DNA from: a virus
Taxonomy: Duplodnaviria; Caudoviricetes
DNA: 50,202 nucleotides
Virus record (IMG/VR): IMGVR_UViG_3300031519_008035
Location: 1-50,202 of that record
Direction: 5' to 3' (one strand)
How positions within the stretch are numbered: position 1 is the first letter of the stretch; each line of letters begins with the position of its first letter. The translations under genes were made by a program, and so were the position numbers. Below, in pieces: positions 17,909 through 49,143 of the stretch. The notes below the pieces were generated by a model. That model did no database searches and had not been told where the DNA came from. It worked only from the letters and a program-made list of their open reading frames with translations.

Positions 17909-17914
17909 TATTTA
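17909..17914 (-). promoter_or_regulatory. T4-like late promoter core TAAATA
   Basis: Uses the TAA stop of the giant gene, 6 nt before ATG 17902. Confidence 0.6.
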
Positions 17915-20900
17915 TTCAGGTGCGTTTGTTGGTTCGTTAGCTATGAATTTAGCTTGTTGAGTCGTAGAAGCCTGTAATCCCTTACCATCCGCTGGATTAC
18001 CATCTAATGCCGTGTACCATACCTGTCCTCTCTTGTGTAAGATTTTAACCTGTGTTCCCAATGCTGGAACAGTGCTTAAAGTCACTGCAGATCCTGACAC
18101 AGAATAGTTAATAGTTGATCCGTCCTCGCTAGTAAGCAACAATCGTTGGCCACCAATGAATATGTCTAACTCACTAGCGGAAGCCGGGGTTTGTGATAGT
18201 GGAAACACTGTCTCACTACCATCACCTGTGAAGGTGTTAGTGTATACTGTGTCCGCATAAGGTATAGTTTGAGTTCCGCTGGCATCTACCACTAGTGTGC
18301 CATCGCTATGGTCCTTAATTCCTGTTCCAAGTGTTCCACGTCTAAGTTGCCCCAACGTGTTTCCGTTCTTGGTAAAATATTCTATTCTTTCCTTGTCTAC
18401 AAAGACAACGCCCGGCATGTTGTTTGATGCATCCGGTTCTTGTAATGCTGTTCCGTCCTTGACTTGTAGTGTGTTTATTGTATCGGTCAAGTCATCAACT
18501 AATTCCGTTGTTGATGTTTTACTGATACGTTTGTAGAAAGTCCTGTTCAACATATCTTTGAATATTCTAAATCCTGTGCCTCCTATCGCTGAATCCAATG
18601 CAAAGTACATCACATCCAGTCTGTCCGACACCGTTATTGTAGTGTTCAGTACCGTGATTATGTTACCGTTCAGTGTGTAGTCATAGTTTTGTATCAATTG
18701 TTTACCATTCAGCCAAACATAGGCGTACGTGGCATTCAGTGGATCGAATCTCAAGTGGAACACGTTATCTGGTTGTCCTTCTAAAACTTCTCTTCTCTGT
18801 TTCATGCCAAGTGCATTGTTAAATGTTGTTACTGATAAAACGTCGTTTGCGGTCAGTGTCTGACCATCTGATGCCAACCGTGTTTGGTCTAATATTATGT
18901 CTGCCCCTTCATTGTAGTACTGGTAACCTGTCAATGTTGTTATAGCAATTAAATCTGTGCTTGCCGGTGCAGTGACAAAAATAACCTGATCTGGTTGTCC
19001 TGCTCTATCTGTTGTTGTTGTTGATAAATCAGCTGTCTGTGTTGATATATCAGCTGTGTTTACTCCGTTTCCTAGATCGACCGTGTAGTCGGTATTCAGA
19101 GTCTGCTGTACCCCATTCACATGTATCTGTATCTGCGAAGCACTCGTAATGACCTTTATAGGATCTATTGTTGAATCCTCTCCTAACCGTTTGAAGTCAA
19201 ACTCTAGGTCTGCGGTCTTATGAATTGTGTCTGATGTCTCTGTTGATATGTCTGTCGTGTGTGCGACGTAGCCAACAGTTGACAGTGGATTGAAGCCATA
19301 GCTAACAGTAGTTCCGTCTCCCAGATAGTAACTGATGTCTGGCCCTCTTAGAACTTTCCCATTTGCTTCTATCATCGTCAGTCCTGAGAACGGTCCTATA
19401 GATCCAGGTGGGTAAGTTAGAGTGTATCTGTCTGTGCTACCATCATATGTTATTGCTTGATTCCTAATACTAGCAAAACTCCGTGTGCTTGATGTAGATT
19501 TGTTGAACCCTGCGATCTGTACAAATGCATCTGCCGCCGGAGCAGAGTTGAATGTTACTGTCACTGTATTAGCAGTTGTTGTAGTCGAGAATGCTGTTGT
19601 TGGTACACCATCAACTGTTATGTACATGTCAGACACAGTTGAATCTAAATTGAATTCACCCCTCGTTGAGGTCGTGAACGTGATTGTGCTTCCGTCTCCT
19701 GTATACTGATCCAATACCCTATAATTCTCTCCGCTTATTGCAAAAACTTTTGTTGACACAACAGAATACTCTGCAGGTGCGGTGTTAAACGTAATTGTTT
19801 TGTTGCCAACATCTATTGTGTAGTCTGTCGTTAATTTTTTAACAACGCCATCTACCGCAACAGTAACCGAACCAAGTGTTCCTGGATAGTCCCCAATGCT
19901 GAATGTTGTTGTTGAACCTTCAACTCTGTGATTCTTTTCTGAGATAAACGGCACTCCTGATTCTGGAGATGTGTAAACTTTTATGTCTAGTGTATCAAAC
20001 ATTTGTCCCGGAACTGTCTCTTCTGGTGCGTAGCTAGTGTCTGGTGATATGAAATCATCACCTTCCAATATGATATCACTTGGTGCGTGTCCAAGTGCTG
20101 ACCCAAAAAGTCCGCCCTGCACTATAGAGTCCAGTGTCCTATCATCCGTTGGCGTTAGCACACCGTCGTCATCGAATGGTATAAATTCTATCAATGCATT
20201 TTCATCGGCTATTTCACTGATAGTGAAGTTGACTGTTGATCCGTCACCTCTGATCACATCAGGAAGTTTTTTCCTTGTGCTGTCATCCTGTGTGATGTAG
20301 ACTTGATAAACATCTGTAGTTGTCGGCGCCAATGCAAAAGTATATACCGATGTAGATCCGTCTGCCCTAAATGCCTTGACTCTAGAGTCCCCGTAGTTGT
20401 CCCATGGGAAATCGTACCAGCCTGCTTTGTCCCACCCTTGTTCCTGTGAGAATAGTAATCCTGTAACCATTGTTCCACCGTAGTCAACTCCCGACATCAC
20501 TTGTGTCAATTCGTTGCCTGGCATTCCCGAACCCGGGGTATAGAAACCTTTAGTCCTGTCTGCGGCTGTGAGTTCTGTTTCGTCACCGTACACTTTATAA
20601 ACACTTCCTATGGTGTCATCAAATACTGTGGTTGCTGTGAAGGCATTGGTCACTTTGTAAAGCTGATTTTTGTACCTAAGCAGATCATTGTATGCATAGC
20701 TAGTCAATGCTGTCCAATCGACTACCCTCGATGTACTAGAAACTCTATCAAATTTTATTGTTGTGTTTATGTCCCTAACAAGATCATTGCCTAGGTTCGT
20801 GTATGCTCTAGCAGTGTCAGACGGTGTTGATCCATCAGATGCACCACCCGTCAGTACTACCATAGGTGTCGAAGTGTAGTTTGCGCCAGCACCTGTTACA

Positions 20901-23900
20901 GTTATTTTTGTTACCTTGCCACCAACAATCGTTGCTGTAGCAGTCGCCGCAGTAGTAGCCGGTGTTGTGTACATCTTGTATGCACCGGATATTGTTGACT
21001 GTGCGTGATTAGAAATTTGACTGTCTGGCATGTAGAACGTTCCTGTGTACCCATCAAATGTGTGAGAGTGTGATGTACCAGATCCGCCATTTTGCGAATC
21101 CCAAATGTTAGATTGTTCAAGACTAGTGAACAATGGATAGTAGTAACCGTAACTGCCTGAAGACGCTCCGCTCGAACTTGTTGCTAATATCTGGAACGGA
21201 CCTGTTGATCCCACCATTCCTCCCACTATTGTGACTGTAGGGGCTGTGGTGTAGCCGGATCCACCTTTGCTGACTGTTATAGATGAAACGTATTTCTTGT
21301 GGTAGTCATACCACATCTGGTATGGGTATTCTGTTAGTTTGGCCGTATCACTATTCACATTCAACGATCTAATCTTGCCTATTGTGGCATCGTAGAATGT
21401 TGGGTTGTCAAAATCAGTGAACAATCCATCCTGTGTCTCTAGTTTGTCGTACCCTAGTTTGTACTCCCTCAATTTTGTATGGAAAGGCTTGACCTCGTTG
21501 ATGTAGCTCTCTATCCAACTGTCTGTGCCTGTTGTGTATGTTTTTCTCTGATCCAGTTTCCTGACCGAATTTTTGGCGTTTATGAATGATGTTTTGAACA
21601 CCCAATCCACGTATGTCTGTTCCGAAAGCACTTTCCTCAATCCAGTGAAGAACAAGGTATTGTATTCTACTGCAAGATCGTTTATAAACAAGTCATCCCT
21701 TAGTGCTGTTAATACCCTCCTGGTCTCTGTGCTTGGTTCTTGGTCAAAGAAGTTGTCATCAAAGTTATCATCACCTGCGAAACCGGAGGCATCTTGTGAG
21801 TAATCATATAATTTAGTAGATAATCTGATCGTTCCGTTCTCTGTTCCAATGTTCTCCCATCCTGATGCAGTTTTCATAAACAGTTTCCACCCACCAGTGT
21901 CAGCACTCTTTACCTTAACGTGTTTACCTATTGCAAGGTCTAATAAGTCCAGTTCATACTGGTATGTGACCTGCTTGTCTATCTTAGTGTTCGCATCATG
22001 GGTCATGTCGCCGTCCGTTTTGTACCAATCTATATAACTCCAGTATGCCGAGGTGTTGTAGGTCTGAAGTTTAGTCCTCGACCACTCTGTGCCGTCCCAG
22101 TTGTATATCGCCCAGTAGTTGTTGGCGGTCTCGTCCGACTTGACCAGATAGTTTATAGTGCCCGATATGTCCGCTGTGTTGATGTAATTCAGTTCAGCAT
22201 ATGTGTCCACAGAAGCGTCCCACTCCAAGCTCTGTATTGTTGGTTCTGGTTCACTGTCATTCAGATTAGTTAATTTTATCTGTCCGACTAACTGGTTCTT
22301 TTTCAGAACCGTGTTAGCGTAGTCTATTATTTCTTCTAGGGCCTTGTATCTATTCACATACCAACTCTGTCTAGGTCTTATGCTGTTACCGTATCTCTCG
22401 TTCAGTGGTAAGTCTGGGTCTGGAACAAGATCACCTGTACTATTCTTACCTATCAACGAATCCCACCAACGTGTCTCTATGTTATTTCCTGGTCTGTAAT
22501 CGGCGTCTCCTTCCCTGACTAATTTCCATACACTGTGCGAATCTCCCTCGAACGTGTTTGTACGTATGTCTACGTTTAAAACAATGTTGTCATTGACTAG
22601 ATTATTAACATTGTTAATCATTAATTTATTTGTATCGGTCACTGAGTAGTATTTGAAGCCAAACCCACTAGGGTTCTGTATCAGATTAGCGACATATGCC
22701 GCTGTGTTCTTCCTCATGACCACACTGTTAGCAGGCATAGTTGTCGTGCCTTTGACCCAATAGTAATAGAAGTTGACTAACCTGTCTAATCTAGAATCGT
22801 ATCTCTGCGTCACCGTGTACTGCGAATCGTCTCCGTAAAGTGCTGTCCCTGATATTATACGTGTACGTCCTGCGCCTTCTGATCTATTATTCCATTCACT
22901 TGGTAGCAATCTCGATTCTGTCCATTCGTAGATGTCTATGCTGGATCCCGGGAAAGTCTGTCCCCAGTGGTTGTTTTTGTACTCCTGTGTGTCCTGCTCG
23001 TACCATAACCATTTGACTGTTGATAAATTCCACCAAATCTCACCCACATGATTCTCTGCCCATGGTGTCTTGGTGTTGGCATTTGTGCCTGTGTTGTAAG
23101 TTGCAGGATCCCATGTTGTTTTTATATTAATTTCTCTATCAGCTATTCCTAGTATCCTGCCCTTAATAGGATCATAGAGCTCGTAGTGATCCCTGATCTG
23201 TTTGTTCTTGTTATCAAATTCAAAAACTTTTCCTAATTTATCTATGTCGATCAATGCTGTTTCCTTTACTATATTCTTCCAAGCGTACTCTCCGTTGATT
23301 GTCAGGTCAAAACAAGTAAGTGTGCCATCATCGGTAACACCGGTGTTACCATCATCTTTAGGTGCTCCTACTATTACTGTGTTGTTGATCATGCATACAC
23401 CACGACCGAAGTCATCGTTCTCCGACATACTGTCTGATACCAATTTGTCATCAATAACAAACTTGGTGTTGTACATAGTGGCTGTGAAAGCACCTCCCGA
23501 TCCTGTGTTTATGTCACCAAACGTTGTGTCCTGCAGGTCAAAAGTGGTCTCACCCAAATCAAGCTTCATTTCTCTAGCTGTGGCAAAGTTCTCTGCACCT
23601 ATCACTACCCTAGTGCCTGAGTGGTCGATATCAAGGCTTGTGCCAAATTTCATGTTGTTCTGTGTTTCCGGTGATTTCAAAGTCTGTTGCAATGTATATG
23701 TGTTTGTCGACTCATCAGCATTCCACTTGTAGTAGTAGATTGCTCCACCATCTATCTGTCCTGTGCTACTGTCATCAACGCCCGGTGCTCCTATCATAAG
23801 AGTGGTGCCGTCCTTACTCATTGCCATCGAATCACCAAATGCTGTGTTCAGTGAAGATCCGTCACTGGATACACCAGTAAGTGTCTGTGCTAGTGCGAAT

Positions 23901-26900
23901 GAATTCTGTGAGCTTCCGTCATTGCTCTGCGATGTCTTTACGAAAATCTCTACCTTGCCGGCATTGCCTGGTGCAAGTGAACTGACTGCTAATATGTCGC
24001 CGTTGTCGTTGGCCTGTATTCTGTGACCAAATCTCTGTCCTGATCCACCGTCCGGTGCTTCTATTGTGTAGTCCTGTGTCCAGGTATCATAGGTTGAACC
24101 ATCTGCACCAATTCCCCAAGTGTACATGTACACCCTACCTGTATCGCTATCATGTCCTGGTGCTGACACAAACAAATACTTGTCGGCTGTTGTCCTAACA
24201 GACGAGACTCCTGGCTCTGATATCTGATGTTCCCACCCGAAGTTAAGATCTTCATTCGAACTAGAGCCGTCTGTCGGTGGTATTATTGTGTCTAGTATAC
24301 CATACTTGAATGTGCTTGGATCCCAAATATAAATTTTTATTAATCCGGCATTCTGTTGCCTAGTACTTCCGTCCAGCCCAATTGTGTTGGTGTACGGCGC
24401 TCCTGCAACCACAAAGTTCTCATCTGTGCTAATCGACAGAGAATCCCCCAGTCTGCTGGTGTTGTCATCGTTATCAGTCATTGTGGCTGTTGATTGTGTC
24501 TGTAGTGCTGTGCCTGCCGTTGTTGTTGATCTGAATAGGAAGTGTATCTCTCCCTGTCCTTTTCCTGGTGCTGACGTAACTATGGTCCTTCCGTCGTTAC
24601 GTGCCACTATCCTGTGTCCAAACTCCTGTTCAGCAGTACTGGTGTCTGGTGATAAGACTGATACTTGTGTGTATGGATCTTGTTTCTCGTACACACGCCA
24701 CAGACCGGCACTGTCCGCATCAGCGAACACCTTGTCTCCTGGCTGGTCTATTGCATCATCTTTGTCGGTGTAATCATTATAGTTCAATATGTCGTTCGCA
24801 TTGTCCATGGATGCCAGTCTCACAGATATGAATTTGTATATGTTACCGTAACTGTCCGCTGTTGACCCATCTTCCAGTGCTGGTATAAAAGCAACATTAC
24901 CCGTGTAGTCTATGATCACAGTCTTGTGGTCCGGCGTTGCAGAAACTTGATACACACCGTTCAATGTGGGTTCTTCACTGTTTGAGATTGCAAAGTAATC
25001 AGCCAGTGTTGTTGTTGAGCCTGCTGTCAATCCATGTGAGCCTGTAAAAGTTATCTCCAATTGCGTTGATTCGTTTATCAAAAGTAGGTTAGCTATCTTG
25101 AAGCCCGCACTGGTGATCCTAAACACGTCCCAATCCCTGTTGCTCTTGTTGGCAATCCAGATTAAATCGTTGGTCGTAATAGCGTTCATGTCAAGGTTAA
25201 GTATCTCTCCTATGTTGAAAGCGGTGTGTTGCACCTGAGCCAATTGCGGATACCCTGCTGTCTTGAAAACCTGGGCGTTGTCCCTGCTGATCCCTTCCTT
25301 GCTGTAGTCTAATCTGCTGAATGTGTTTGCCGCCGTGTACTCCACTGGTTTGTAATAGAAATTATCCTTGAGTATAGCCTCCGACCTTGCGTATTCAACA
25401 GTATCAGATGATGTGTCTAGCAGTTCGATGCTCTGCGGGTTTGCTGTTATTCTATTATCCTTTAAGACGAGCTGTATGTTCTCTACAGCATCCATGTTAC
25501 CAAAATTTCCAGTCCTGACCATCCATTCTGGATATAATTCCAATGAGATATCTTCACCTTCGTACTTGGCCTTAAGGATTTTGTCTATAGCATTCTTTGT
25601 ACCTTTCTCCTTGATGTATCCTTGATAGAACTTGTACTGCGAAATATCGTTGACGAATAAGTTTTCTAGATAATCTCTGCTTTGATACCCGGTCAATCTC
25701 TGTGCGAGTCGTTGTTGCGAATCGTCAAAATTGTTGGTTTCTAACTCGTAGAAATCGTTGAACTGTGAGATCTTGTACTCGAAGTTCGGTATGAGTTGTG
25801 GTGCTGGCTTATTGTCCTTGAGTGTCCAATTTGCAGTTTCGAAAATTGCTCCCGAGTTGTGATTTGTCTTTGACACATAGAACTTTCCTTGGTATTCCAC
25901 ACTGTCGCCTATCCTGTAATCTGTGTTGGCCAACCAGTATGTGACCTGTGCGGCATCAAATACAAAGCCCGGTGCGTAGTAGTCACCGTTCCACCCTGCC
26001 GTCTTCCATCCAACTATTTTTAATCTCTGTTGTCTGAATCCTGTTAACGGATCATATATGATGTCTGCGAACACTGTGCTGTTGTCAAACAACAGTATGT
26101 GTTCCTTCTGCACTGTGTTCAAAGCAATGTTGTATAGTCCTACCGTGTCAGACTTGATACCTAACTCGAATGTCTTACCTGTACGCTTGGTTGATATCTC
26201 TCTGACGTCAATTTTTCTGCCTCCCGAATCCAATATCGAGTAGTCACCTGCTAGATTCCTAAGTCTACCCACAATACTGTTGTTGGTGTCTAATTCGAAT
26301 CCGTCTGCGGCTGGTGAAACTGTTATCGCTGATCCCGGTGACCATTCCTGCGTAGTCCAGAACAAGAACTCCTTGATAGCGTTTGCCCAGTTCAGTGTTT
26401 CCTTTAATTCTGTAGAGAACTTGTTGAATCGGAATCCTTGACTTTCCAACCAGTGGCCGTACCCAAACAAGAAGTCTGCCACGTCCTGTATTGTGTTGAA
26501 CACATATCCATATGGTATGGTCTGTGTGATTTCTTGGTATGTTGCATACTGTTTGATCGCCGTTGACCCTTCTACCGACACTGCATTGGTAGTTGTAGTC
26601 TTGACCGGATAGTTGAAATTAAAATATGGTTTGACTGTGCTGTACCCTAACACCTTGTATCCGCCCAATACAGTGGATCCGTCACTGCTGACATCTGTAT
26701 TTTTTTCAATCAGCACGCCCGAATATTCAAAACTTTCTACAGGATTAGATGTCCTAAACAGTATCTTGTAGTTCTCATCTGGTATGAATTTTGATCCTGA
26801 TGTTGATCCAGGCGATACTGAATCTGTCAGTATTTTTAAATTGTCCTTGTCTGTGAATCCTCCCAGCTTGTACGCCATCTGCACTGTTAGGTTCTTCATC

Positions 26901-29900
26901 TTGTCATAGTAGAAGGCCTTGGGATCCATGTTCCTCGAGATCAAGTAGTTGATCACAAAAGGTTGATAACCCGCTGTCTGGTATCTAGTTGTAACACCTG
27001 TTGATAGATCCGTCTCCGTCTCTAAATGATATTTCGCTGTTGCTAGAGTTTTCCTAATACCTGTCTCTGAATATACTTGGTTACCTGCCACGTTCGTTGA
27101 TAATCTAGACGGGTCAAATAAGTTCGAAAAGAACTTTGCCGGTTTGGTCAGTGCCAACGTCTTCGTCGCAGTGAACGGATAAGCACTCGATCTCCTCCAG
27201 GCTGTCTCCGCTGGTGCTTGATCGCCAAACTTCCATGCGTTCTGCCTTCCTGGTATGTCAAAGTTGTCTACAAGTCCTGCCGCTAATGGATCTAAAAGAT
27301 TTCCTGATGCATCAACGGGAATGTAGCTCGCTATCTCCGGTTTGCCGTACCTGCCTGGCTCTGTCGCTATTGCATTCCATAACACAGTGTTGCCCGATGT
27401 GTATGGTGCTGTTCCGTAAGTTGCGTCCCAATTGGTAGGTTTTTCTGAATGACCTAAAATCTCCCATGGTCTAACATGTGGAGCATCAGTGTCATAGAAA
27501 TATTTGTAAATTCCCCTCCAGTATCCTGGTAGTTTCTCATCTATCAATCTGCCTGTTGATCTTGCATAGTTGTAAGTGAAAGGCGATCCCTCTGTGAATA
27601 CAGTGTTATTGATGTACTGTACATTGTTACGACCGGCCCACTGGTAGAAGTCTGCTCCCATCGCATTGTTGACTTCCTGTAGTGTGTATTCCGTTGACGT
27701 GAAAGCACTAGGCAACACATCGTGAAAATCCACCAAAGTTGAATCGTAATTTACTTTTATGTTGTTGTAGATCCTCTTTTCAAGTTCCAAAATCAGGGCG
27801 TCACGTTCGTCGCCATACGCCTTTATAATCGAGCCGTCGTGTTTCCGGATCATTGCTGTGTCTGTGAGATATGTTGTGTCTGTGAATGTTTCGGGTGTGA
27901 ACTTTGGATACATGCCAAGTGTTGTAGGTGATGGTGGCATATAACTGCCTGTAGTGTCTGCATAATCCTTGATTATAATCTTGTCACCTTCGGCAAGTGT
28001 TTTACTGATCTTCACACTGTCGTCTGTTGTGCTGAATGTGTATTCTGTTCCTAATAATAATTGCACATCATTTAGATACACATAGACTGCCCTATTGCTA
28101 GGTGTTGTGATATCGTGTTGTGAATCCAATGCATATTCTGTCTGTGATACACCCAGCACCGTATATGATCTGATTGAAACATTCTCTCCCCACCCTATCA
28201 TGTCCTCATAGAAAAACGGGAATGTGCTGTTCCTGCCTGGAGTGATTACTGATATTATCTCGTCAACCCTGTCTGCGGGCACACCTTCGTATGCTGTTCC
28301 CGTGGCATGTGTGAGGAATGCGTTGTACCATTTTTCATATTCCTGTCCTGCATAGTCAATAGATGTAACGAAGTTAGCGTCTTGATCCACTAGATTGAAT
28401 ATGGCAGGAAGTAGTGATCCTTCATGCTGATGTATAGTCCCGCCTTTCAATCTCGCATCTGGTTTGTCTCGCAGATTAGAAACTCCTGGTATTGTACCTG
28501 TAACTTCTTGGTTCTTATCAAATATGTCCCTGACATGGTTTAGTACCTGTCCAAAAGTAAACGTTCCCAACTGTTGATTGAGACTATTGGTTGCTAGGTT
28601 CTCTGGTATCTCGTAAATTCCTTTATTGGGCAACTTATCGGCACTACTGTATCCTGCTATCCGAATCTGATCATTAACTGACAAAATCTTGTTGAACTTG
28701 ACATATCTGTTCTTGGTACCTGTTTCCAGTGTGTAATCTGTTGTAAGTGATTTTCTTGCTCCGTTAACCGATACTGATAATTCCAAATCTGTTAGATCCG
28801 CTGAGTTCTTGTAGAAGTCGATCGGAAACAACTGTTTCTCTGTGTCGTCAACTATCATCGTCCTGGTCACACGCTGTTTACTATCTGTGGTCCTTTTTAT
28901 CCAAGCACCTTTTGAATTGTGTGTACTCCTTCCTGTGGTGTAGTGTAAGTGTCCCTCTGCTAGATTCACAGTCAGCGTCTGTGTACCACTCTTGTAAGTG
29001 AATGTCCCTGACGTGTGATCTGACTCGAAAACTATGTCTCCCACATTGTTGACTGTGTTGTACTTGACCTTTATACCAAGCACCGTGTCCGTTGTTGCCG
29101 TGTCTGATGTGGCAAAAGCAAAAACCTTGGCTCCTGCGAAAGTTGAATTTGGGTATGTTGTTGTATCATCGAACGCAGTGTGATCGTTGTTGAACATAGC
29201 AAACAACGGCTGTTGGTTCACTCCTGCCTTTTGCTGTGCTTCCACAAACGATAACGTTGCACTGTCATAGTAGAATGTTTTACCTTGATTTATTGTACCA
29301 AATTCAATGAATATGGAATCATTACTTGTTGGTGTGGCATCAGAGGCCTCGGTCAAATTAATGACCTGTGTTGAGTCTCCTGCAGTAACGAAATTTACAT
29401 CATATATCTTGTTCTTCACTATCGGGTCAGTGTCCGCCGCAAACACAATCCTCATTCCATTTGCCAGTGGTAAACCATCCACGATGTAACCTGTCTGTCT
29501 GACCACACTACTGAATGCGTCTGTTGTCACCGTATCATAAAGTGTGACCGATTTCTTGGCTACTATTCCGTGATTGTACAAAGCGAGTCCCGAATCAAAT
29601 TCTATAATGGGCCTCTTGGCCCTGTCATCCTCGTTCAACGTTGGAGCGAAACCGCCAACTCTTGCTGTTTCCTCGATTATGGACTTGTGGAACCATCTGT
29701 TGTATCTCGACCATGCATTACGATCCTGTGAATCTCTTTTGATTGTTATGTAATCTTTAGTGTCTGGTGTATAGAATGCCTTGGCATACGGTCTGGAATC
29801 ATAGCCTACTTGGTCATACAGTATCGTTGTTTCAGTGGCGTAACTGCCCGGTGTTATAAGATCATCAACATCGGTTAATGTAATAGCTTCGCCAACACCT

Positions 29901-30919
29901 TCTACGTAGTATTCTTTGTCCTGGTATGCAGTTGGCACTAAAGAATTAGTAAATTTAATCTTCATGCCGTTTGAAAGATCTAAAGTCCTTAGACTGAAAT
30001 TCTTAACCCCTATTATATCATCTTCAACATTTATAGCAGTTGTACTGCTGGCGTTTCTGATCTGCAGTATACCATACATGGCATCATGGTTGCCACACTG
30101 GTAGTATAAAGTGTCGGGTGCACCAGTCGTGGGCACTGTGAACGTTACTGTGCCATAATCTGTACCGTTATTTGTAACACCTGTATCAAACACAGTTGAG
30201 GTCGATCCGTCTATTGACAACTTGCTCTTGTATGGTTCTGTCATTATCCATAACGGATGTCCTTTGGCGTTTACTTCAAACTTGTATGTGTTACCCCTGT
30301 AAAGTGTCAGTATGGGATTGTCTTCATTTTCTCTGTGTGTAAACTCATAGGCCTTTTGAATATTATTTTTCACGCTATATTCAACTACAGCTGAAGGTCC
30401 AACCGAATCTATTTCTATAGATCCAGGTCCTATTGGCATCCAGTAGTACTCCCTGTAGTTTACTAACTTGTCGTAGTCTATGGCAGGGTTCCAACCGTAT
30501 ACAGTCTCCTTGTTGAGTCTGTCGTGGTTGTTTATGTTTCCACCTAGGTATTTGATCTGGTTTATATAGTCGTCGTACGTCCCTGTAAATTTGACCTGGT
30601 CCTCTGGATTAACAGAAGTAGTATCTCTATCTGTGTACGTGACTGTTGGTTCCAGCTGGTATGCAAATCTATCCCTGCTAGTGGCTGTAAGGTACCTGTC
30701 GTTGACATTTCTAGTGTAGGCATCCTGCCTACCGATGTACCCATCCAATCTCTCAAGGGATCCTTGCTGAACCAAAGGATCCATCGTGCTTGATAGAAAA
30801 CGTTGGTTTGTGTCTGTCCTGTAGAAAGCAGGTAGGTGTTGCACAGTACGTCTGTACTCGTTGTTGTCTTGTTTGACAACTTCGTTATTGGTTAATGCGT
30901 TTGTGGGATTGTCTGCCAT
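17912..30919 (-). CDS. Giant (4,335 aa) multidomain virion protein, baseplate wedge (gp7-like position) with adhesin-type domains
   Basis: Follows gp6. Contains a cupredoxin-like segment, FG-GAP-like propeller repeats, W..Y..GD.V.Y.G..Y carbohydrate-binding-like motifs, GSGYTTAPTV and GDGST..F repeats, and KPFHTKLREY. Confidence 0.75.
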   Translation of the reverse strand: MADNPTNALTNNEVVKQDNNEYRRTVQHLPAFYRTDTNQRFLSSTMDPLVQQGSLERLDGYIGRQDAYTRNVNDRYLTATSRDRFAYQLEPTVTYTDRDTTSVNPEDQVKFTGTYDDYINQIKYLGGNINNHDRLNKETVYGWNPAIDYDKLVNYREYYWMPIGPGSIEIDSVGPSAVVEYSVKNNIQKAYEFTHRENEDNPILTLYRGNTYKFEVNAKGHPLWIMTEPYKSKLSIDGSTSTVFDTGVTNNGTDYGTVTFTVPTTGAPDTLYYQCGNHDAMYGILQIRNASSTTAINVEDDIIGVKNFSLRTLDLSNGMKIKFTNSLVPTAYQDKEYYVEGVGEAITLTDVDDLITPGSYATETTILYDQVGYDSRPYAKAFYTPDTKDYITIKRDSQDRNAWSRYNRWFHKSIIEETARVGGFAPTLNEDDRAKRPIIEFDSGLALYNHGIVAKKSVTLYDTVTTDAFSSVVRQTGYIVDGLPLANGMRIVFAADTDPIVKNKIYDVNFVTAGDSTQVINLTEASDATPTSNDSIFIEFGTINQGKTFYYDSATLSFVEAQQKAGVNQQPLFAMFNNDHTAFDDTTTYPNSTFAGAKVFAFATSDTATTDTVLGIKVKYNTVNNVGDIVFESDHTSGTFTYKSGTQTLTVNLAEGHLHYTTGRSTHNSKGAWIKRTTDSKQRVTRTMIVDDTEKQLFPIDFYKNSADLTDLELSVSVNGARKSLTTDYTLETGTKNRYVKFNKILSVNDQIRIAGYSSADKLPNKGIYEIPENLATNSLNQQLGTFTFGQVLNHVRDIFDKNQEVTGTIPGVSNLRDKPDARLKGGTIHQHEGSLLPAIFNLVDQDANFVTSIDYAGQEYEKWYNAFLTHATGTAYEGVPADRVDEIISVITPGRNSTFPFFYEDMIGWGENVSIRSYTVLGVSQTEYALDSQHDITTPSNRAVYVYLNDVQLLLGTEYTFSTTDDSVKISKTLAEGDKIIIKDYADTTGSYMPPSPTTLGMYPKFTPETFTDTTYLTDTAMIRKHDGSIIKAYGDERDALILELEKRIYNNIKVNYDSTLVDFHDVLPSAFTSTEYTLQEVNNAMGADFYQWAGRNNVQYINNTVFTEGSPFTYNYARSTGRLIDEKLPGYWRGIYKYFYDTDAPHVRPWEILGHSEKPTNWDATYGTAPYTSGNTVLWNAIATEPGRYGKPEIASYIPVDASGNLLDPLAAGLVDNFDIPGRQNAWKFGDQAPAETAWRRSSAYPFTATKTLALTKPAKFFSNLFDPSRLSTNVAGNQVYSETGIRKTLATAKYHLETETDLSTGVTTRYQTAGYQPFVINYLISRNMDPKAFYYDKMKNLTVQMAYKLGGFTDKDNLKILTDSVSPGSTSGSKFIPDENYKILFRTSNPVESFEYSGVLIEKNTDVSSDGSTVLGGYKVLGYSTVKPYFNFNYPVKTTTTNAVSVEGSTAIKQYATYQEITQTIPYGYVFNTIQDVADFLFGYGHWLESQGFRFNKFSTELKETLNWANAIKEFLFWTTQEWSPGSAITVSPAADGFELDTNNSIVGRLRNLAGDYSILDSGGRKIDVREISTKRTGKTFELGIKSDTVGLYNIALNTVQKEHILLFDNSTVFADIIYDPLTGFRQQRLKIVGWKTAGWNGDYYAPGFVFDAAQVTYWLANTDYRIGDSVEYQGKFYVSKTNHNSGAIFETANWTLKDNKPAPQLIPNFEYKISQFNDFYELETNNFDDSQQRLAQRLTGYQSRDYLENLFVNDISQYKFYQGYIKEKGTKNAIDKILKAKYEGEDISLELYPEWMVRTGNFGNMDAVENIQLVLKDNRITANPQSIELLDTSSDTVEYARSEAILKDNFYYKPVEYTAANTFSRLDYSKEGISRDNAQVFKTAGYPQLAQVQHTAFNIGEILNLDMNAITTNDLIWIANKSNRDWDVFRITSAGFKIANLLLINESTQLEITFTGSHGLTAGSTTTLADYFAISNSEEPTLNGVYQVSATPDHKTVIIDYTGNVAFIPALEDGSTADSYGNIYKFISVRLASMDNANDILNYNDYTDKDDAIDQPGDKVFADADSAGLWRVYEKQDPYTQVSVLSPDTSTAEQEFGHRIVARNDGRTIVTSAPGKGQGEIHFLFRSTTTAGTALQTQSTATMTDNDDNTSRLGDSLSISTDENFVVAGAPYTNTIGLDGSTRQQNAGLIKIYIWDPSTFKYGILDTIIPPTDGSSSNEDLNFGWEHQISEPGVSSVRTTADKYLFVSAPGHDSDTGRVYMYTWGIGADGSTYDTWTQDYTIEAPDGGSGQRFGHRIQANDNGDILAVSSLAPGNAGKVEIFVKTSQSNDGSSQNSFALAQTLTGVSSDGSSLNTAFGDSMAMSKDGTTLMIGAPGVDDSSTGQIDGGAIYYYKWNADESTNTYTLQQTLKSPETQNNMKFGTSLDIDHSGTRVVIGAENFATAREMKLDLGETTFDLQDTTFGDINTGSGGAFTATMYNTKFVIDDKLVSDSMSENDDFGRGVCMINNTVIVGAPKDDGNTGVTDDGTLTCFDLTINGEYAWKNIVKETALIDIDKLGKVFEFDNKNKQIRDHYELYDPIKGRILGIADREINIKTTWDPATYNTGTNANTKTPWAENHVGEIWWNLSTVKWLWYEQDTQEYKNNHWGQTFPGSSIDIYEWTESRLLPSEWNNRSEGAGRTRIISGTALYGDDSQYTVTQRYDSRLDRLVNFYYYWVKGTTTMPANSVVMRKNTAAYVANLIQNPSGFGFKYYSVTDTNKLMINNVNNLVNDNIVLNVDIRTNTFEGDSHSVWKLVREGDADYRPGNNIETRWWDSLIGKNSTGDLVPDPDLPLNERYGNSIRPRQSWYVNRYKALEEIIDYANTVLKKNQLVGQIKLTNLNDSEPEPTIQSLEWDASVDTYAELNYINTADISGTINYLVKSDETANNYWAIYNWDGTEWSRTKLQTYNTSAYWSYIDWYKTDGDMTHDANTKIDKQVTYQYELDLLDLAIGKHVKVKSADTGGWKLFMKTASGWENIGTENGTIRLSTKLYDYSQDASGFAGDDNFDDNFFDQEPSTETRRVLTALRDDLFINDLAVEYNTLFFTGLRKVLSEQTYVDWVFKTSFINAKNSVRKLDQRKTYTTGTDSWIESYINEVKPFHTKLREYKLGYDKLETQDGLFTDFDNPTFYDATIGKIRSLNVNSDTAKLTEYPYQMWYDYHKKYVSSITVSKGGSGYTTAPTVTIVGGMVGSTGPFQILATSSSGASSGSYGYYYPLFTSLEQSNIWDSQNGGSGTSHSHTFDGYTGTFYMPDSQISNHAQSTISGAYKMYTTPATTAATATATIVGGKVTKITVTGAGANYTSTPMVVLTGGASDGSTPSDTARAYTNLGNDLVRDINTTIKFDRVSSTSRVVDWTALTSYAYNDLLRYKNQLYKVTNAFTATTVFDDTIGSVYKVYGDETELTAADRTKGFYTPGSGMPGNELTQVMSGVDYGGTMVTGLLFSQEQGWDKAGWYDFPWDNYGDSRVKAFRADGSTSVYTFALAPTTTDVYQVYITQDDSTRKKLPDVIRGDGSTVNFTISEIADENALIEFIPFDDDGVLTPTDDRTLDSIVQGGLFGSALGHAPSDIILEGDDFISPDTSYAPEETVPGQMFDTLDIKVYTSPESGVPFISEKNHRVEGSTTTFSIGDYPGTLGSVTVAVDGVVKKLTTDYTIDVGNKTITFNTAPAEYSVVSTKVFAISGENYRVLDQYTGDGSTITFTTSTRGEFNLDSTVSDMYITVDGVPTTAFSTTTTANTVTVTFNSAPAADAFVQIAGFNKSTSSTRSFASIRNQAITYDGSTDRYTLTYPPGSIGPFSGLTMIEANGKVLRGPDISYYLGDGTTVSYGFNPLSTVGYVAHTTDISTETSDTIHKTADLEFDFKRLGEDSTIDPIKVITSASQIQIHVNGVQQTLNTDYTVDLGNGVNTADISTQTADLSTTTTDRAGQPDQVIFVTAPASTDLIAITTLTGYQYYNEGADIILDQTRLASDGQTLTANDVLSVTTFNNALGMKQRREVLEGQPDNVFHLRFDPLNATYAYVWLNGKQLIQNYDYTLNGNIITVLNTTITVSDRLDVMYFALDSAIGGTGFRIFKDMLNRTFYKRISKTSTTELVDDLTDTINTLQVKDGTALQEPDASNNMPGVVFVDKERIEYFTKNGNTLGQLRRGTLGTGIKDHSDGTLVVDASGTQTIPYADTVYTNTFTGDGSETVFPLSQTPASASELDIFIGGQRLLLTSEDGSTINYSVSGSAVTLSTVPALGTQVKILHKRGQVWYTALDGNPADGKGLQASTTQQAKFIANEPTNAPE
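18995..19060 (-). repeat. Short coding tandem repeat (21-bp unit, TADxSTx) in the giant protein
   Basis: gttgataaatcagctgt / gttgatatatcagctgt 21 nt apart, encoding TADISTQTADLSTT. A related TTDISTETSDT lies near 19230-19260. Confidence 0.5.
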
Positions 30920-46759: not shown

Positions 46760-47857
46760 TTAAGAGTCCAACTGTTTGTAAATTTTGTGTGTTAGTGTGT
46801 TCTCTCCGGCGATGCTGTCAAAAACTTGTTGTATGTGTGTGTAATAATGAAGTTTACGTTGATTCCAGAAATGCTGATAGTTGTGCTGTGCAATCTGTTC
46901 CATCTGTGCCTGTGCCAACTTGTCATTTTTAATGTGTGTTAAGAAGCTCTCTAGATAGGGCAGTTTTTTTTCTAACGCAGTTTCTGTGTGCCACTGCTGA
47001 TAAAATCCGTTGTCATACAAACGATATCCGTGGGCCAACAAACGATCGTACATGGGTTTATGACCCAGATGCACCACAGGAATACCCAATAGGATGGGTC
47101 TGAATGTTTTTTCTGTACACTGCACATTGCCGGAATTCCTAGTTTCGAGTATCAGTTCACAGAATATTTGTTCATACATTTTAAAATTGGGCAGGCCGTT
47201 TCCAAACGATGTGAGTGCGGATATGTGTTGTCCAGAGCCGTACTGTTGTGTGAAGTGTTGCAATACATCAGCGGCTTTGTTATATAGAGCAGTACTATTG
47301 GTTGATAGTGATGGGAAAAAGTCTTTCCACAGTGCCGACTCTTGTAGATAGGTTCCCACAGTTTTTCTAAAATCGTCTTTGAACACTGTTTGAATGGAAA
47401 ACATTTTTGTAGGCTGACGTTTTTTGTGCAGTAGTTTGGACAGCAACAGCACAAAACTGTGACTTAGCTTGTTTTCATTAGTATCTATAGAATAAATTTT
47501 TATGTTATTGTAGACATTGATATAATAGCCATTAACTATCATATTGATATCTGTTGTCATGGCAACAGTGTTTAAACGATCCAGTAACGAATCTGTAAAT
47601 AAAAACGGATGATTGTTAGATATCGTTAAGGTTTCCACCCGTTGTTGTTGTAACAGGTCTATAAGAATTTCTGTGTGTTCTATAACAAACTGTTCGTACA
47701 CTATTAAATGTTTTACCGGGCTCTGTTTGCACAGTTCTAATAACTGTGATTGGTCGATCGGACTGATTGATATCCCTCCCAAATTGTAGCAGAAATCAAC
47801 GAGCCAATCCGGAAGTTCTAGACCGTAAATTGGTATTATCCTGTCAGCTAATTGCAT
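46760..47857 (-). CDS. Putative glycosyltransferase-like protein (GT10/GT-B-like C-terminus)
   Basis: ILETR....QCTEKTFRPILLGIPVVHLG...LLAHGYRLYD...IAQHNYQHF, resembling the TEK motif of fucosyltransferase-type folds. Confidence 0.45.
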   Translation of the reverse strand: MQLADRIIPIYGLELPDWLVDFCYNLGGISISPIDQSQLLELCKQSPVKHLIVYEQFVIEHTEILIDLLQQQRVETLTISNNHPFLFTDSLLDRLNTVAMTTDINMIVNGYYINVYNNIKIYSIDTNENKLSHSFVLLLSKLLHKKRQPTKMFSIQTVFKDDFRKTVGTYLQESALWKDFFPSLSTNSTALYNKAADVLQHFTQQYGSGQHISALTSFGNGLPNFKMYEQIFCELILETRNSGNVQCTEKTFRPILLGIPVVHLGHKPMYDRLLAHGYRLYDNGFYQQWHTETALEKKLPYLESFLTHIKNDKLAQAQMEQIAQHNYQHFWNQRKLHYYTHIQQVFDSIAGENTLTHKIYKQLDS

Positions 47858-47863
47858 AATTGG

Positions 47864-47869
47864 TATTTA
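47864..47869 (-). promoter_or_regulatory. T4-like late promoter core TAAATA
   Basis: 6 nt upstream of ATG 47857. Confidence 0.55.
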
Positions 47870-47913
47870 AACTCAATATGATTGGACAGTTTTTTTTTAT
47901 GTGTTATATAGTA

Positions 47914-48352
47914 GTGAAGGGCAACAGTATCCTTCCACCAGGCAAACAAATTTCCCATAGGCAAACATAGCATCTTCTCAGTGAGCAGTGAAATGCACCG
48001 GATAACGGGATAAGTGAATCACTTGATGCACCATACAAAAATGATGAGGCTCTTAGAAAAAGATAATCCTCAAGTTTACCAAGAACCATTATACAGGGGT
48101 TTGGTAGGCTCGCGTTGTAATAGAATGAGCAAACGGGTACAGCACAACCGCCCGACGAGAGTAGCGATGTATAGTGACTGCGAACTCACCACAGGGTTCC
48201 CAATCAGTTCTGCTAGCAATAGCAGAATTGTGACTGCTCATCTACCACAGAGTACGCATATGCGTACACCGTTAATTTTTTGCTTTGCGTAAGCGTAAAT
48301 TAAGAAAAGAAACGAGCATAGCGAAGTTTCAGATGACTGCAAGTCATCTTTT
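47914..48352 (+). ncRNA. Candidate structured non-coding RNA (alternatively a structured replication origin)
   Basis: Dense hairpins with G-U pairs and GNRA loops on the + strand, an 8-bp long-range helix, an upstream TGGACA-18-TATAGT promoter and a terminal hairpin followed by TTT. Confidence 0.55.
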
Positions 48353-48372
48353 GCATGACCTTAAGTATTAGC

Positions 48373-49143
48373 ATGGAACTACTCTTTGATCACACCCACG
48401 GCAAACAGGAACACCAGGATCTTGTGATATGCCGACCCATGGCTGTCGTTGACGAGGACGAATCAATAGAGGCCCTTGACACCGGTTGGCTGGCGCTGGA
48501 TCACCCTGTGGGCAATTTCAAGGAAGTGTGGTACCAGAGCCGTAGCACACGTATCAATATGCAGAAGCACAGGCCACGTTACAAGCGGCACGTGTGGGAA
48601 GGCCGGGAGATCGGCATAAAAGTGATTGACGCCAGTGAGATGGTCAAGCTGTTGGGACTTCCCCACATATACCAACAGTACATGGCTAGAAAAAAATTTA
48701 CACAGGACTACGATCCCTTTGCCCACTACCATGCACGTGACCAGTTCATGCTGTTCTACACAGGCACGGCTGACAACATACTGGGATTCACCAAACAGAA
48801 GCGATACAGATACCAAGAGGACAACTACGCCATGGATGAGCGATACCCGGACCTGGCGGGGCTGGAGTCAGTTATACACGCCAACACTGTTCCCATATCG
48901 GACCTCACGCTGGACCTGGAGCTGGAATGGGCCGCTGAGAACTACGTAGCGTACTTCTACATGGGGTCGGGCTATGAAACTAGCTCAGAGTACAAGGCCA
49001 ACTACAGGGGCTTCGAATGGTGGACGGGCACCGAGTGGAGTACCAATAAAAAGTTGTACAGGAGTCTGTGTAGGAGGGATTCTAGGGTCGAGACTTTTGC
49101 GGATGTCGCCAAGTGCCAGTCACTGATTCCCGATACTTTGTAG
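48373..49143 (+). CDS. Aminoacyl-tRNA-protein transferase (ATE1/Bpt-like)
   Basis: ALDTGW and WYQSRSTRI (ATE N-domain-like), YFYMGSGYETSSEYKANYRGFEWWTGTEW (ATE C-terminal YLGY...YK..F...E...W-like). Start ATG 48373 after TAAGTA. Confidence 0.65.
   Translation: MELLFDHTHGKQEHQDLVICRPMAVVDEDESIEALDTGWLALDHPVGNFKEVWYQSRSTRINMQKHRPRYKRHVWEGREIGIKVIDASEMVKLLGLPHIYQQYMARKKFTQDYDPFAHYHARDQFMLFYTGTADNILGFTKQKRYRYQEDNYAMDERYPDLAGLESVIHANTVPISDLTLDLELEWAAENYVAYFYMGSGYETSSEYKANYRGFEWWTGTEWSTNKKLYRSLCRRDSRVETFADVAKCQSLIPDTL

Follow-up and report, generated by a model that had tools for sequence, protein, structure and literature searches.

In ColE1 RNA II, pairing between a G-stretch and a C-stretch nucleates the RNA–DNA hybrid. 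RNA II is a large folded non-coding transcript that arises from a host-polymerase promoter, and it provides the precedent for pairing of an upstream RNA with template DNA (PMC5043065, PMC11012335, PMC5703827); RNase H trims the persistent hybrid until only a few hybridised bases are left (PMC5043065). Phage T4 uses several R-loop origins that are shut off by UvsW; as these are described in PMC3016281, oriF and oriG need no folded RNA, and the T4 origins have no common sequence motif and need only an A+T-rich unwinding element. A different use of RNA is made by the DRT10 and DRT2 non-coding RNAs and telomerase RNA, which contain A-B-A' direct repeats that must match each other while their sequence may change; the copying route requires a reverse transcriptase (RT), as in DRT10 (10.1101/2025.10.16.682844). 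Also of relevance are GOLLD, ROOL and OLE, which are large, pseudoknotted and phage-associated (PMC12286853), and ncRNA004 of phage PA5oct, which made up 0.08, 0.03 and 0.02% of phage reads in RNA-seq and was published as a 'putative lncRNA' for which the accessible text gives no structure, family or function (PMC7318152).

We describe here an element in a 50,202-nt stretch of viral DNA (the window), itself a piece of a large T4-related phage with a late sigma factor and gp47/46-like, Hc1 and GIY-YIG genes upstream. We consider it nearly certain that this element is a real conserved RNA gene. As with RNA II, a host-polymerase promoter (predicted) lies upstream of a large folded non-coding transcript; unlike RNA II, the element belongs to a phage and not a plasmid, its repeats are free in sequence, it contains two pseudoknots, it has no Rfam or plasmid match, and its origin role is predicted. 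Features in common with T4 oriF and oriG are the T4-like replisome, which includes a UvsW-like helicase, the presence of several sites in one genome, and a promoter-driven transcript as the (proposed) primer (PMC3016281); the conserved fold of ~300 nt, which is under selection, sets the element apart from those origins. It resembles the DRT10, DRT2 and telomerase RNAs in its A-B-A' direct repeats, but no RT is found beside it or in the five records searched, no repeat product was seen, and its unit measures 47–87 nt compared with the 9-nt repeat of Eco3DRT10. Though likewise large, pseudoknotted and phage-associated, the element differs from GOLLD, ROOL and OLE in that it has no Rfam hit, a smaller core, twin matched repeats and a DNA-type tail. 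PA5oct ncRNA004, by comparison, is a homolog: it has the same apical motif, helices A and B, both pseudoknots, and twin repeats around a hairpin, although the PA5oct RNA differs in its insertions and its three copies per genome.

Fold and covariation of the element

A preliminary description had proposed an unclassified, structured phage RNA on the + strand, and all of the motifs that it quoted were located where it placed them. The region 47913–48360 folds on this strand at -128 kcal/mol (z -4.31), a value equalled by 0 of 100 shuffled sequences; the fold of the - strand is not clearly better than its shuffles (z -1.81; 4 of 100 as good). The non-coding gap (47858–48369) is indeed long, exceeding all gaps between open reading frames (ORFs) of at least 130 aa in positions 1–40000 (longest ~360 nt). 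When the window was checked against the Rfam covariance models there were no hits at gathering score, leaving the element uncatalogued, and the four hits at E<=10 were all at chance level. The exclusion of known RNA classes was likewise borne out: ARAGORN found no tRNA or tmRNA gene, and the element matched no covariance model for group I introns, RNase P or other Rfam ribozymes, nor the Rfam models for GOLLD, ROOL or OLE.

Our 61-pair structural model (Table 1) was suggested by mutual information and tested by pair counting in 57 representatives, taken from an alignment of 80 distinct close members. It is 97.3% paired, and 35 of its 61 pairs are compensatory; none of 500 shuffles scored as high and slid controls reached 33–41%, in a comparison that does not fully control for relatedness. 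An alignment of 32 members that includes diverged ones yields 22 compensatory pairs out of 25, a count biased by the fact that this alignment was fitted to the model. Many unpaired residues are invariant, and the core loops are mostly of the UNCG and GNRA types; the G-U pairs and UNCG loops together imply selection on RNA. Compensatory forms of pseudoknot 1 are apparent by eye in PA5oct and RaK2-type copies. Covariation, these RNA-type core loops, the empty Rfam result and an RNA-seq-detected homolog in PA5oct thus all uphold the designation as an unclassified structured + strand phage RNA. A topology-only descriptor was unspecific (41 hits in 1.06 Mb, with 5 of 7 known copies recovered) and was not taken as evidence.

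Table 1. Features of the element and its downstream neighbour (window coordinates)
Feature	Position	Strand	Observations
Sigma-70-type promoter-like site (predicted)	47883..47912	+	similar site in 60/80 close relatives
Variable leader	47913..47967	+	2–4 GGCA/GGCT motifs in 80/80; GAAGG/CCTTC hairpin lineage-specific
5' domain	47968..48030	+	helices 47970-74/48025-29 and 47987-91/48019-23; 3/5 pairs compensatory in each
Helix A	48040..48072	+	pairs 48045-49/48068-72; conserved GC..GAAA.AG apical motif
Helix B	48074..48109	+	11/12 pairs compensatory; loop 48090-95 is the 5' strand of pseudoknot 2
Pseudoknot 1	48113..48150	+	48113-17 with 48145-50, one bulged C; invariant in 57/57, partly fixed by the search pattern used to collect members
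Three-way junction	48129..48165	+	helices 48129-30/48164-65, 48134-37/48151-54 and 48155-56/48161-62; GNRA/UNCG loop
Pseudoknot 2, 3' strand	48168..48173	+	pairs with helix B loop; 6/6 compensatory, 99.1% paired
Repeat unit 1	48174..48199	+	TGACT motif, then repeat 1 (ACCACAG) in hairpin loop; helix 82.5% paired, weak
Spacer hairpin between repeats	48205..48230	+	GCAA loop; 98.9% paired, 4/11 compensatory
Repeat unit 2	48230..48250	+	TGACT motif, ATCT, then repeat 2 (ACCACAG); putative 3' end of stable RNA
Hairpin tail	48253..48352	+	tandem-GA mini-hairpin 48309-30, terminal hairpin 48331-49; predicted single-stranded DNA fold
ATE1/Bpt-like aminoacyl transferase gene	48370..49143	+	frequent, non-obligatory neighbour of the RNA

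Four stems of the earlier reading are supported by covariation: TGAGG/CCTCA, the G-U-rich long stem (48074–48109), CGGG/CCCG, and the GCAA-loop stem (48205–48230). The long-range helix that was thought to enclose them (47982–89 with 48233–40) did not survive, as none of its eight pairs is compensatory and it is 69.9% paired compared with 69.2% in shuffles; residues 47987–91 pair locally with 48019–23 instead. What stands is therefore a folded RNA, and not the overall fold first drawn, which included that helix and a terminator; that reading had also overlooked both pseudoknots, the twin repeats and the tail's tandem-GA hairpin. At the borders, the 5' GAAGG/CCTTC hairpin is present but conserved in just 23 of 80 close relatives, and the promoter-like site is at chance level when taken alone (1 found, 1.9 expected), its recurrence among relatives being the point in its favour. 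Although 79 of 80 relatives keep the terminal hairpin, its supposed terminator role mostly does not hold: only 15 of the 79 have at least five T residues in the next 8 nt, and a terminator scan returned no intrinsic terminators. Leader GGCA/GGCT motifs could pair imperfectly with the two TGACT motifs.

Distribution, homologs and transcripts

The element is common to many large marine and freshwater phages and to the cultured phage PA5oct. By sigma factor, the closest cultured relatives of the window's phage are PA5oct/Paride, Atu_ph07 and RaK2-like phages. Relatives of the downstream ORF define 67 viral loci, most with the element just upstream; a 17-nt pattern identified 119 stretches in half of IMG/VR (~240 estimated in total), of which three were chance occurrences in coding DNA and were dropped. 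Covariance model R1 recovered 16 of 16 diverged members tested, at 31–56 bits. A GTDB scan revealed no cellular copy of the marine type, its 10 hits comprising five phage-like contigs in metagenome-assembled genomes (MAGs) and five chance matches in coding DNA. Five clade contigs (L233, L234, L238, L239, L240) sit in GTDB MAGs of unrelated taxa, which suggests mis-binning.

The usual position of the RNA is between a gp46-Hc1-GIY-YIG block and a baseplate-hub block, and its neighbours change. Within 1.2 kb of 65 distinct elements, an ATE-like gene is present in 43, a GIY-YIG gene in 50 and neither in 6; the partnership that had been suggested for these genes is therefore non-obligatory. We also rejected a fixed pairing of the RNA with either gene, given that 22 of 65 elements lack the ATE-like gene and 12 of 12 distant ATE-like loci lack the RNA, covariance model R1 scoring nothing there within the fetched flanks. 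The ATE-like assignment of the downstream gene itself holds. Seven of the 17 aligned members (4 of 21 were left out) match the NCBIfam arginyltransferase, the top five PDB sequence matches are ATE1 (E 0.014–0.028), and a protein model (pLDDT 77) has human ATE1 as its best match (E 6.8e-6); a single-sequence fold reached a pLDDT of only 32.5. Two ORFs of the window may be recorded here: a lineage-specific one of 365 aa with no clear family (46760–47857, -), in a variable slot between the GIY-YIG gene and the RNA, and one of 4335 aa in the structural block (17912–30919, -).

Covariance model R2, which was built from marine/freshwater members only, ranks three PA5oct sites first among the non-window hits in 460 kb (E 0.0014, 0.0059 and 0.99). 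The helix-A motif of the marine alignment has exactly three matches in PA5oct, at the same three sites (0 of 200 shuffles). By eye, all three copies show the two pseudoknots as well as helices A and B, and in each a hairpin is flanked by the repeats; pseudoknot 1 carries compensatory changes, with three pairs changed. The repeats are 6/6 identical in the 246-kb copy, share five bases in the 76-kb copy, and match at 5/6 in the 13-kb copy. The 246-kb copy is ncRNA004 (PMC7318152), and it is present in 11 of 11 PA5oct-like records. The 3' end annotated for it, L243:1235, coincides with the final base of the second repeat (1230–1235), which leaves the hairpin tail outside; this end is a short-read call of uncertain precision. 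The third copy (12.9–13.5 kb; L289:12850-13500) is unannotated; as it falls inside the 39-kb terminal repeat of the annotation, it would be present twice in the virion genome. At 76 kb (L187:17120-17716), the small coding sequences gp338–gp340 overlap the syntenic RNA copy and may be mis-annotations. A separate RNA, ncRNA002 (L242:652-1102), is abundant (~5% of phage reads), GC-rich and 450 nt long; it has no Rfam hit, and neither it nor ncRNA003 scores with covariance model R1. A search of viral contigs with a PA5oct-type pattern found none.

In RaK2/121Q-like phages, a conserved non-coding stretch occupies the syntenic gap (74 records matched). Its pseudoknot-1 sequence is the same, a helix-B-like loop pairs immediately ahead of repeat 1, and its twin repeats match; there are up to four copies per contig. 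We regard this RNA as a probable member of the same family: the link is drawn from synteny, pseudoknot-1 sequence, topology judged by eye, the twin repeats and the tail, and membership is put as probable because neither covariance model, R1 or R2, detects the RaK2 type. The RaK2-type RNA is also found in 2 of 5426 E. coli genomes. The E. coli island, located at ffs (L241:4850-14900), contains this RNA, an IS3-interrupted integrase, unknown ORFs and a DUF4326/DUF488/dual-OB cluster; none of its five ORFs scanned is a recognisable replication gene, the ORF that follows the RNA bears no relation to the ATE-like protein, and the one that precedes the RNA has no phage match. In a literature search that covered sources other than subscription journals and bioRxiv supplements, the bare PA5oct annotation was all that was found for such an RNA. 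What appears to be new is that the marine type is linked to PA5oct and probably to RaK2, that the family has an expressed member already in print, and that the annotated 3' end of this member lies on repeat 2.

Another feature of the family is its tail. Of 98 marine/freshwater members, 88 have the mini-hairpin on the + (non-template) strand and 11 have one on the - strand, compared with 8.9 in shuffled sequences; for the 35 RaK2-type members the corresponding figures are 26, 8 and 4.2. GNA triloops are loops of the DNA type and favour DNA; they close the mini-hairpin in 19 marine/freshwater and 15 RaK2-type cases. In the marine set they are outnumbered by GNRA tetraloops (53), which do not occur in the RaK2-type tail. 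The tail is thus predicted to fold as single-stranded DNA, although the GNRA majority in the marine set means that it could act as RNA. When folded as DNA, the window's tail is structured on both strands (z -3.3 and -3.1).

As to transcripts, 14 runs catalogued as RNA contain part of the stretch, and the element is covered in all eight contig sets examined (six RNA, two unlabelled); these contigs speak for presence only, not for strand, ends or level. One metatranscriptome contig extends from 48037 through the tail to 48416, into the ATE-like gene, which reflects either read-through or DNA.

Twin repeats and the readings they allow

Two direct repeats of 6–7 nt flank the spacer hairpin: in the window both read ACCACAG (48188–94 and 48244–50), 56 nt apart. 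The two copies match each other within a phage while their sequence varies freely between phages. Thus columns 48188/48244 are AA in 66, GG in 12 and CA in 2 of 80 members, and columns 48189/48245 are CC in 62, GG in 13 and AC in 5; the mismatched exceptions resemble one-column alignment shifts. At least six identical bases were picked at the expected place in 97 of 102 distinct repeat pairs, by a picker that selects for identity (the other five were mis-picked or unpicked). Variants include GCCACA, AGTACA, AGCACA, ACATGA, ACGTGA, AGATGA, GGATGA, AGATAG and GGTAAT, with a spacing of 47–62 nt. The repeat periods vary and are mostly not multiples of three, and the matched stretch often extends past position 8. 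Both units are built alike (TGACT motif, pyrimidine, 7 nt, purine, with a possible closing pair), whereas the 6 nt between TGACT and the repeat differ between them. Within 700 nt, no complement of the repeats recurs at a common position among 31 representatives, so their partner is either the template DNA or a molecule acting in trans. Identity with free sequence and no partner in cis is explained most simply if the repeats pair by way of a complementary strand, either template DNA or a copy. A T-box riboswitch was rejected: it had no Rfam hit, the matched stretch is at least 6–7 nt compared with a 3-nt specifier codon, and there is no general terminator.

The parallel build of the two units could reflect a stand-alone scaffold RNA, akin to GOLLD and ROOL, in which two equivalent loops recognise one and the same trans partner, be it a protein dimer, a tandem nucleic-acid target or a single tRNA species. 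The shared TGACT motif, the possible closing pair and the many invariant unpaired residues would suit such a scaffold, as would the tRNA-using ATE-like gene adjoining in 43 of 65. We nevertheless find this somewhat doubtful: the matched 6–7 nt, often running past position 8, exceed a codon; the reverse complements of the repeats are, by eye, mostly unlike anticodon loops when set against the anticodon-loop consensus; 22 of 65 elements lack the ATE-like gene; and the DNA-type tail and the low PA5oct level are left unexplained.

If the complementary strand were instead a copy, the repeats would form an A-B-A' template of the kind used in DRT10, DRT2 and telomerase: an RT would copy from repeat 2 to repeat 1 and re-anneal at repeat 2, giving tandem repeats of 47–87 nt and perhaps acting as a host-enzyme decoy. 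DRT10 needs just such an A-B-A' pattern whose sequence is free (10.1101/2025.10.16.682844), and repeat 2 lies at the annotated 3' end in PA5oct. An RT is what is missing, which makes this reading unlikely: there is no RVT_1 match in 5 of 5 records (the control was detected in 4 of 14 genomes, and divergent RTs could escape) and no RT among the 75 shared proteins scanned. Furthermore, the periods vary and are mostly not multiples of three, and no joint from repeat 2 to repeat 1 is seen in 8 of 8 contig sets, a weak test since contigs drop rare forms. A crude scan for an RT-like YxDD motif flagged a sole protein, at its end (G003:C1:83653-84912, -), probably by chance.

A 3' end on repeat 2 might also be made by the RNA itself. 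The core could be a large ribozyme of a new kind, partly group I-like, which acts on both repeats by cleavage or ligation; the spacer hairpin would then be excised or circularised, or the RNA's own 3' end formed at repeat 2. Helices A and B, stacked and followed by a bulged pseudoknot, resemble what we take to be their counterparts in group I introns, P4/P6 and P7, and the loop residues are invariant. Against such an activity, which we judge improbable, there is no Rfam hit, no internal guide for the repeats in 31 representatives, and no skip or back joint in the same contig sets. A group I intron as such was rejected, and on grounds that also count against the ribozyme: the order P3-P7-P8 (P3/P8/P7) is absent because helix C encloses the 3' strand of pseudoknot 1, and pseudoknot 1 changes at three pairs in PA5oct, unlike the fixed G-binding site.

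At the level of DNA, the unit could be a mobile or once-mobile element, or a DNA-level site, whose repeats are homogenised by slippage around the hairpin. Multiple copies in changing contexts, the island copies in E. coli and the DNA-type tail are all in keeping with this, yet it is the reading to which we give least credence: long marine/freshwater records have one clear copy each at a fixed core locus (5 of 5), the two units keep distinct 6-nt stretches between TGACT and the repeat, and the G-U pairs and UNCG loops point to selection at the RNA level.

A proposed primer-RNA model

Bearing in mind that identity, rather than complementarity, covaries between the repeats, we tentatively favour, over the readings above, the hypothesis that the element is a ColE1 RNA II-like replication primer RNA of a clade of large T4-related phages. 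Host RNA polymerase would transcribe it from the upstream promoter, and the folded core would display repeat 1 in a loop. Repeat 1 would then pair with the template DNA at repeat 2 as that strand exits the polymerase, nucleating an R-loop; under this model the two repeats have to be identical because repeat 1 must pair with the template at repeat 2. RNA beyond repeat 2 would remain hybridised and be trimmed back to about repeat 2, and the trimmed 3' end would serve the phage polymerase for genome copying. The displaced non-template strand would fold into GNA-loop, tandem-GA hairpins, at which helicase and primase would load.

Under the primer model it would also make sense that an RNA end falls at repeat 2, that early expression is low, that a terminator is missing, that the tail is strand-specific and that there are multiple copies. 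It draws support from the end hairpin, which has no T-run in most relatives, from the copy number, which is three in PA5oct and as high as four on a RaK2-type contig, and from the replication genes of the clade: polymerase B, primase, DnaB, SSB, UvsX/Y, a UvsW-like helicase and a 5'-3' exonuclease make up a T4-like replisome, and no RT was found in a scan that covered 75 of the 91 shared protein clusters. A G (repeat 1)/A (repeat 2) mismatch bias that the model predicts is seen, but it is confounded by the closing base pair.

Several observations weigh against a primer. Base skew, rejected as an origin signal, tracks gene direction, and in none of the 4 long records does it switch at the element. 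The parallel unit build fits two equivalent sites better than unequal roles, two PA5oct copies have imperfect repeats, and the metatranscriptome contig runs through the tail. We found no sequence or Rfam similarity to ColE1-type replicons, and a search with the RaK2-type island copy gave 0 matches in 72,556 plasmids. The T4 precedents oriF and oriG, moreover, work without a folded RNA (PMC3016281).

An uncatalogued large RNA family thus occupies a core locus of a wide phage clade, and its link to the cultured PA5oct/Paride makes the marine element testable in laboratory hosts. Its matched twin repeats of free sequence point to pairing via a copied or template strand. It is conceivable, though we put it forward with reserve, that the clade, from the marine forms to PA5oct/Paride and probably RaK2/121Q, starts replication with a folded primer RNA whose sequence-free twin repeat locks onto the template. 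If so, this would be an RNA-programmed family of phage origins, recognisable from sequence. The finding would be notable either way: as a structured primer RNA that marks jumbo-phage origins, or as a telomerase-like template or ribozyme without a known enzyme.
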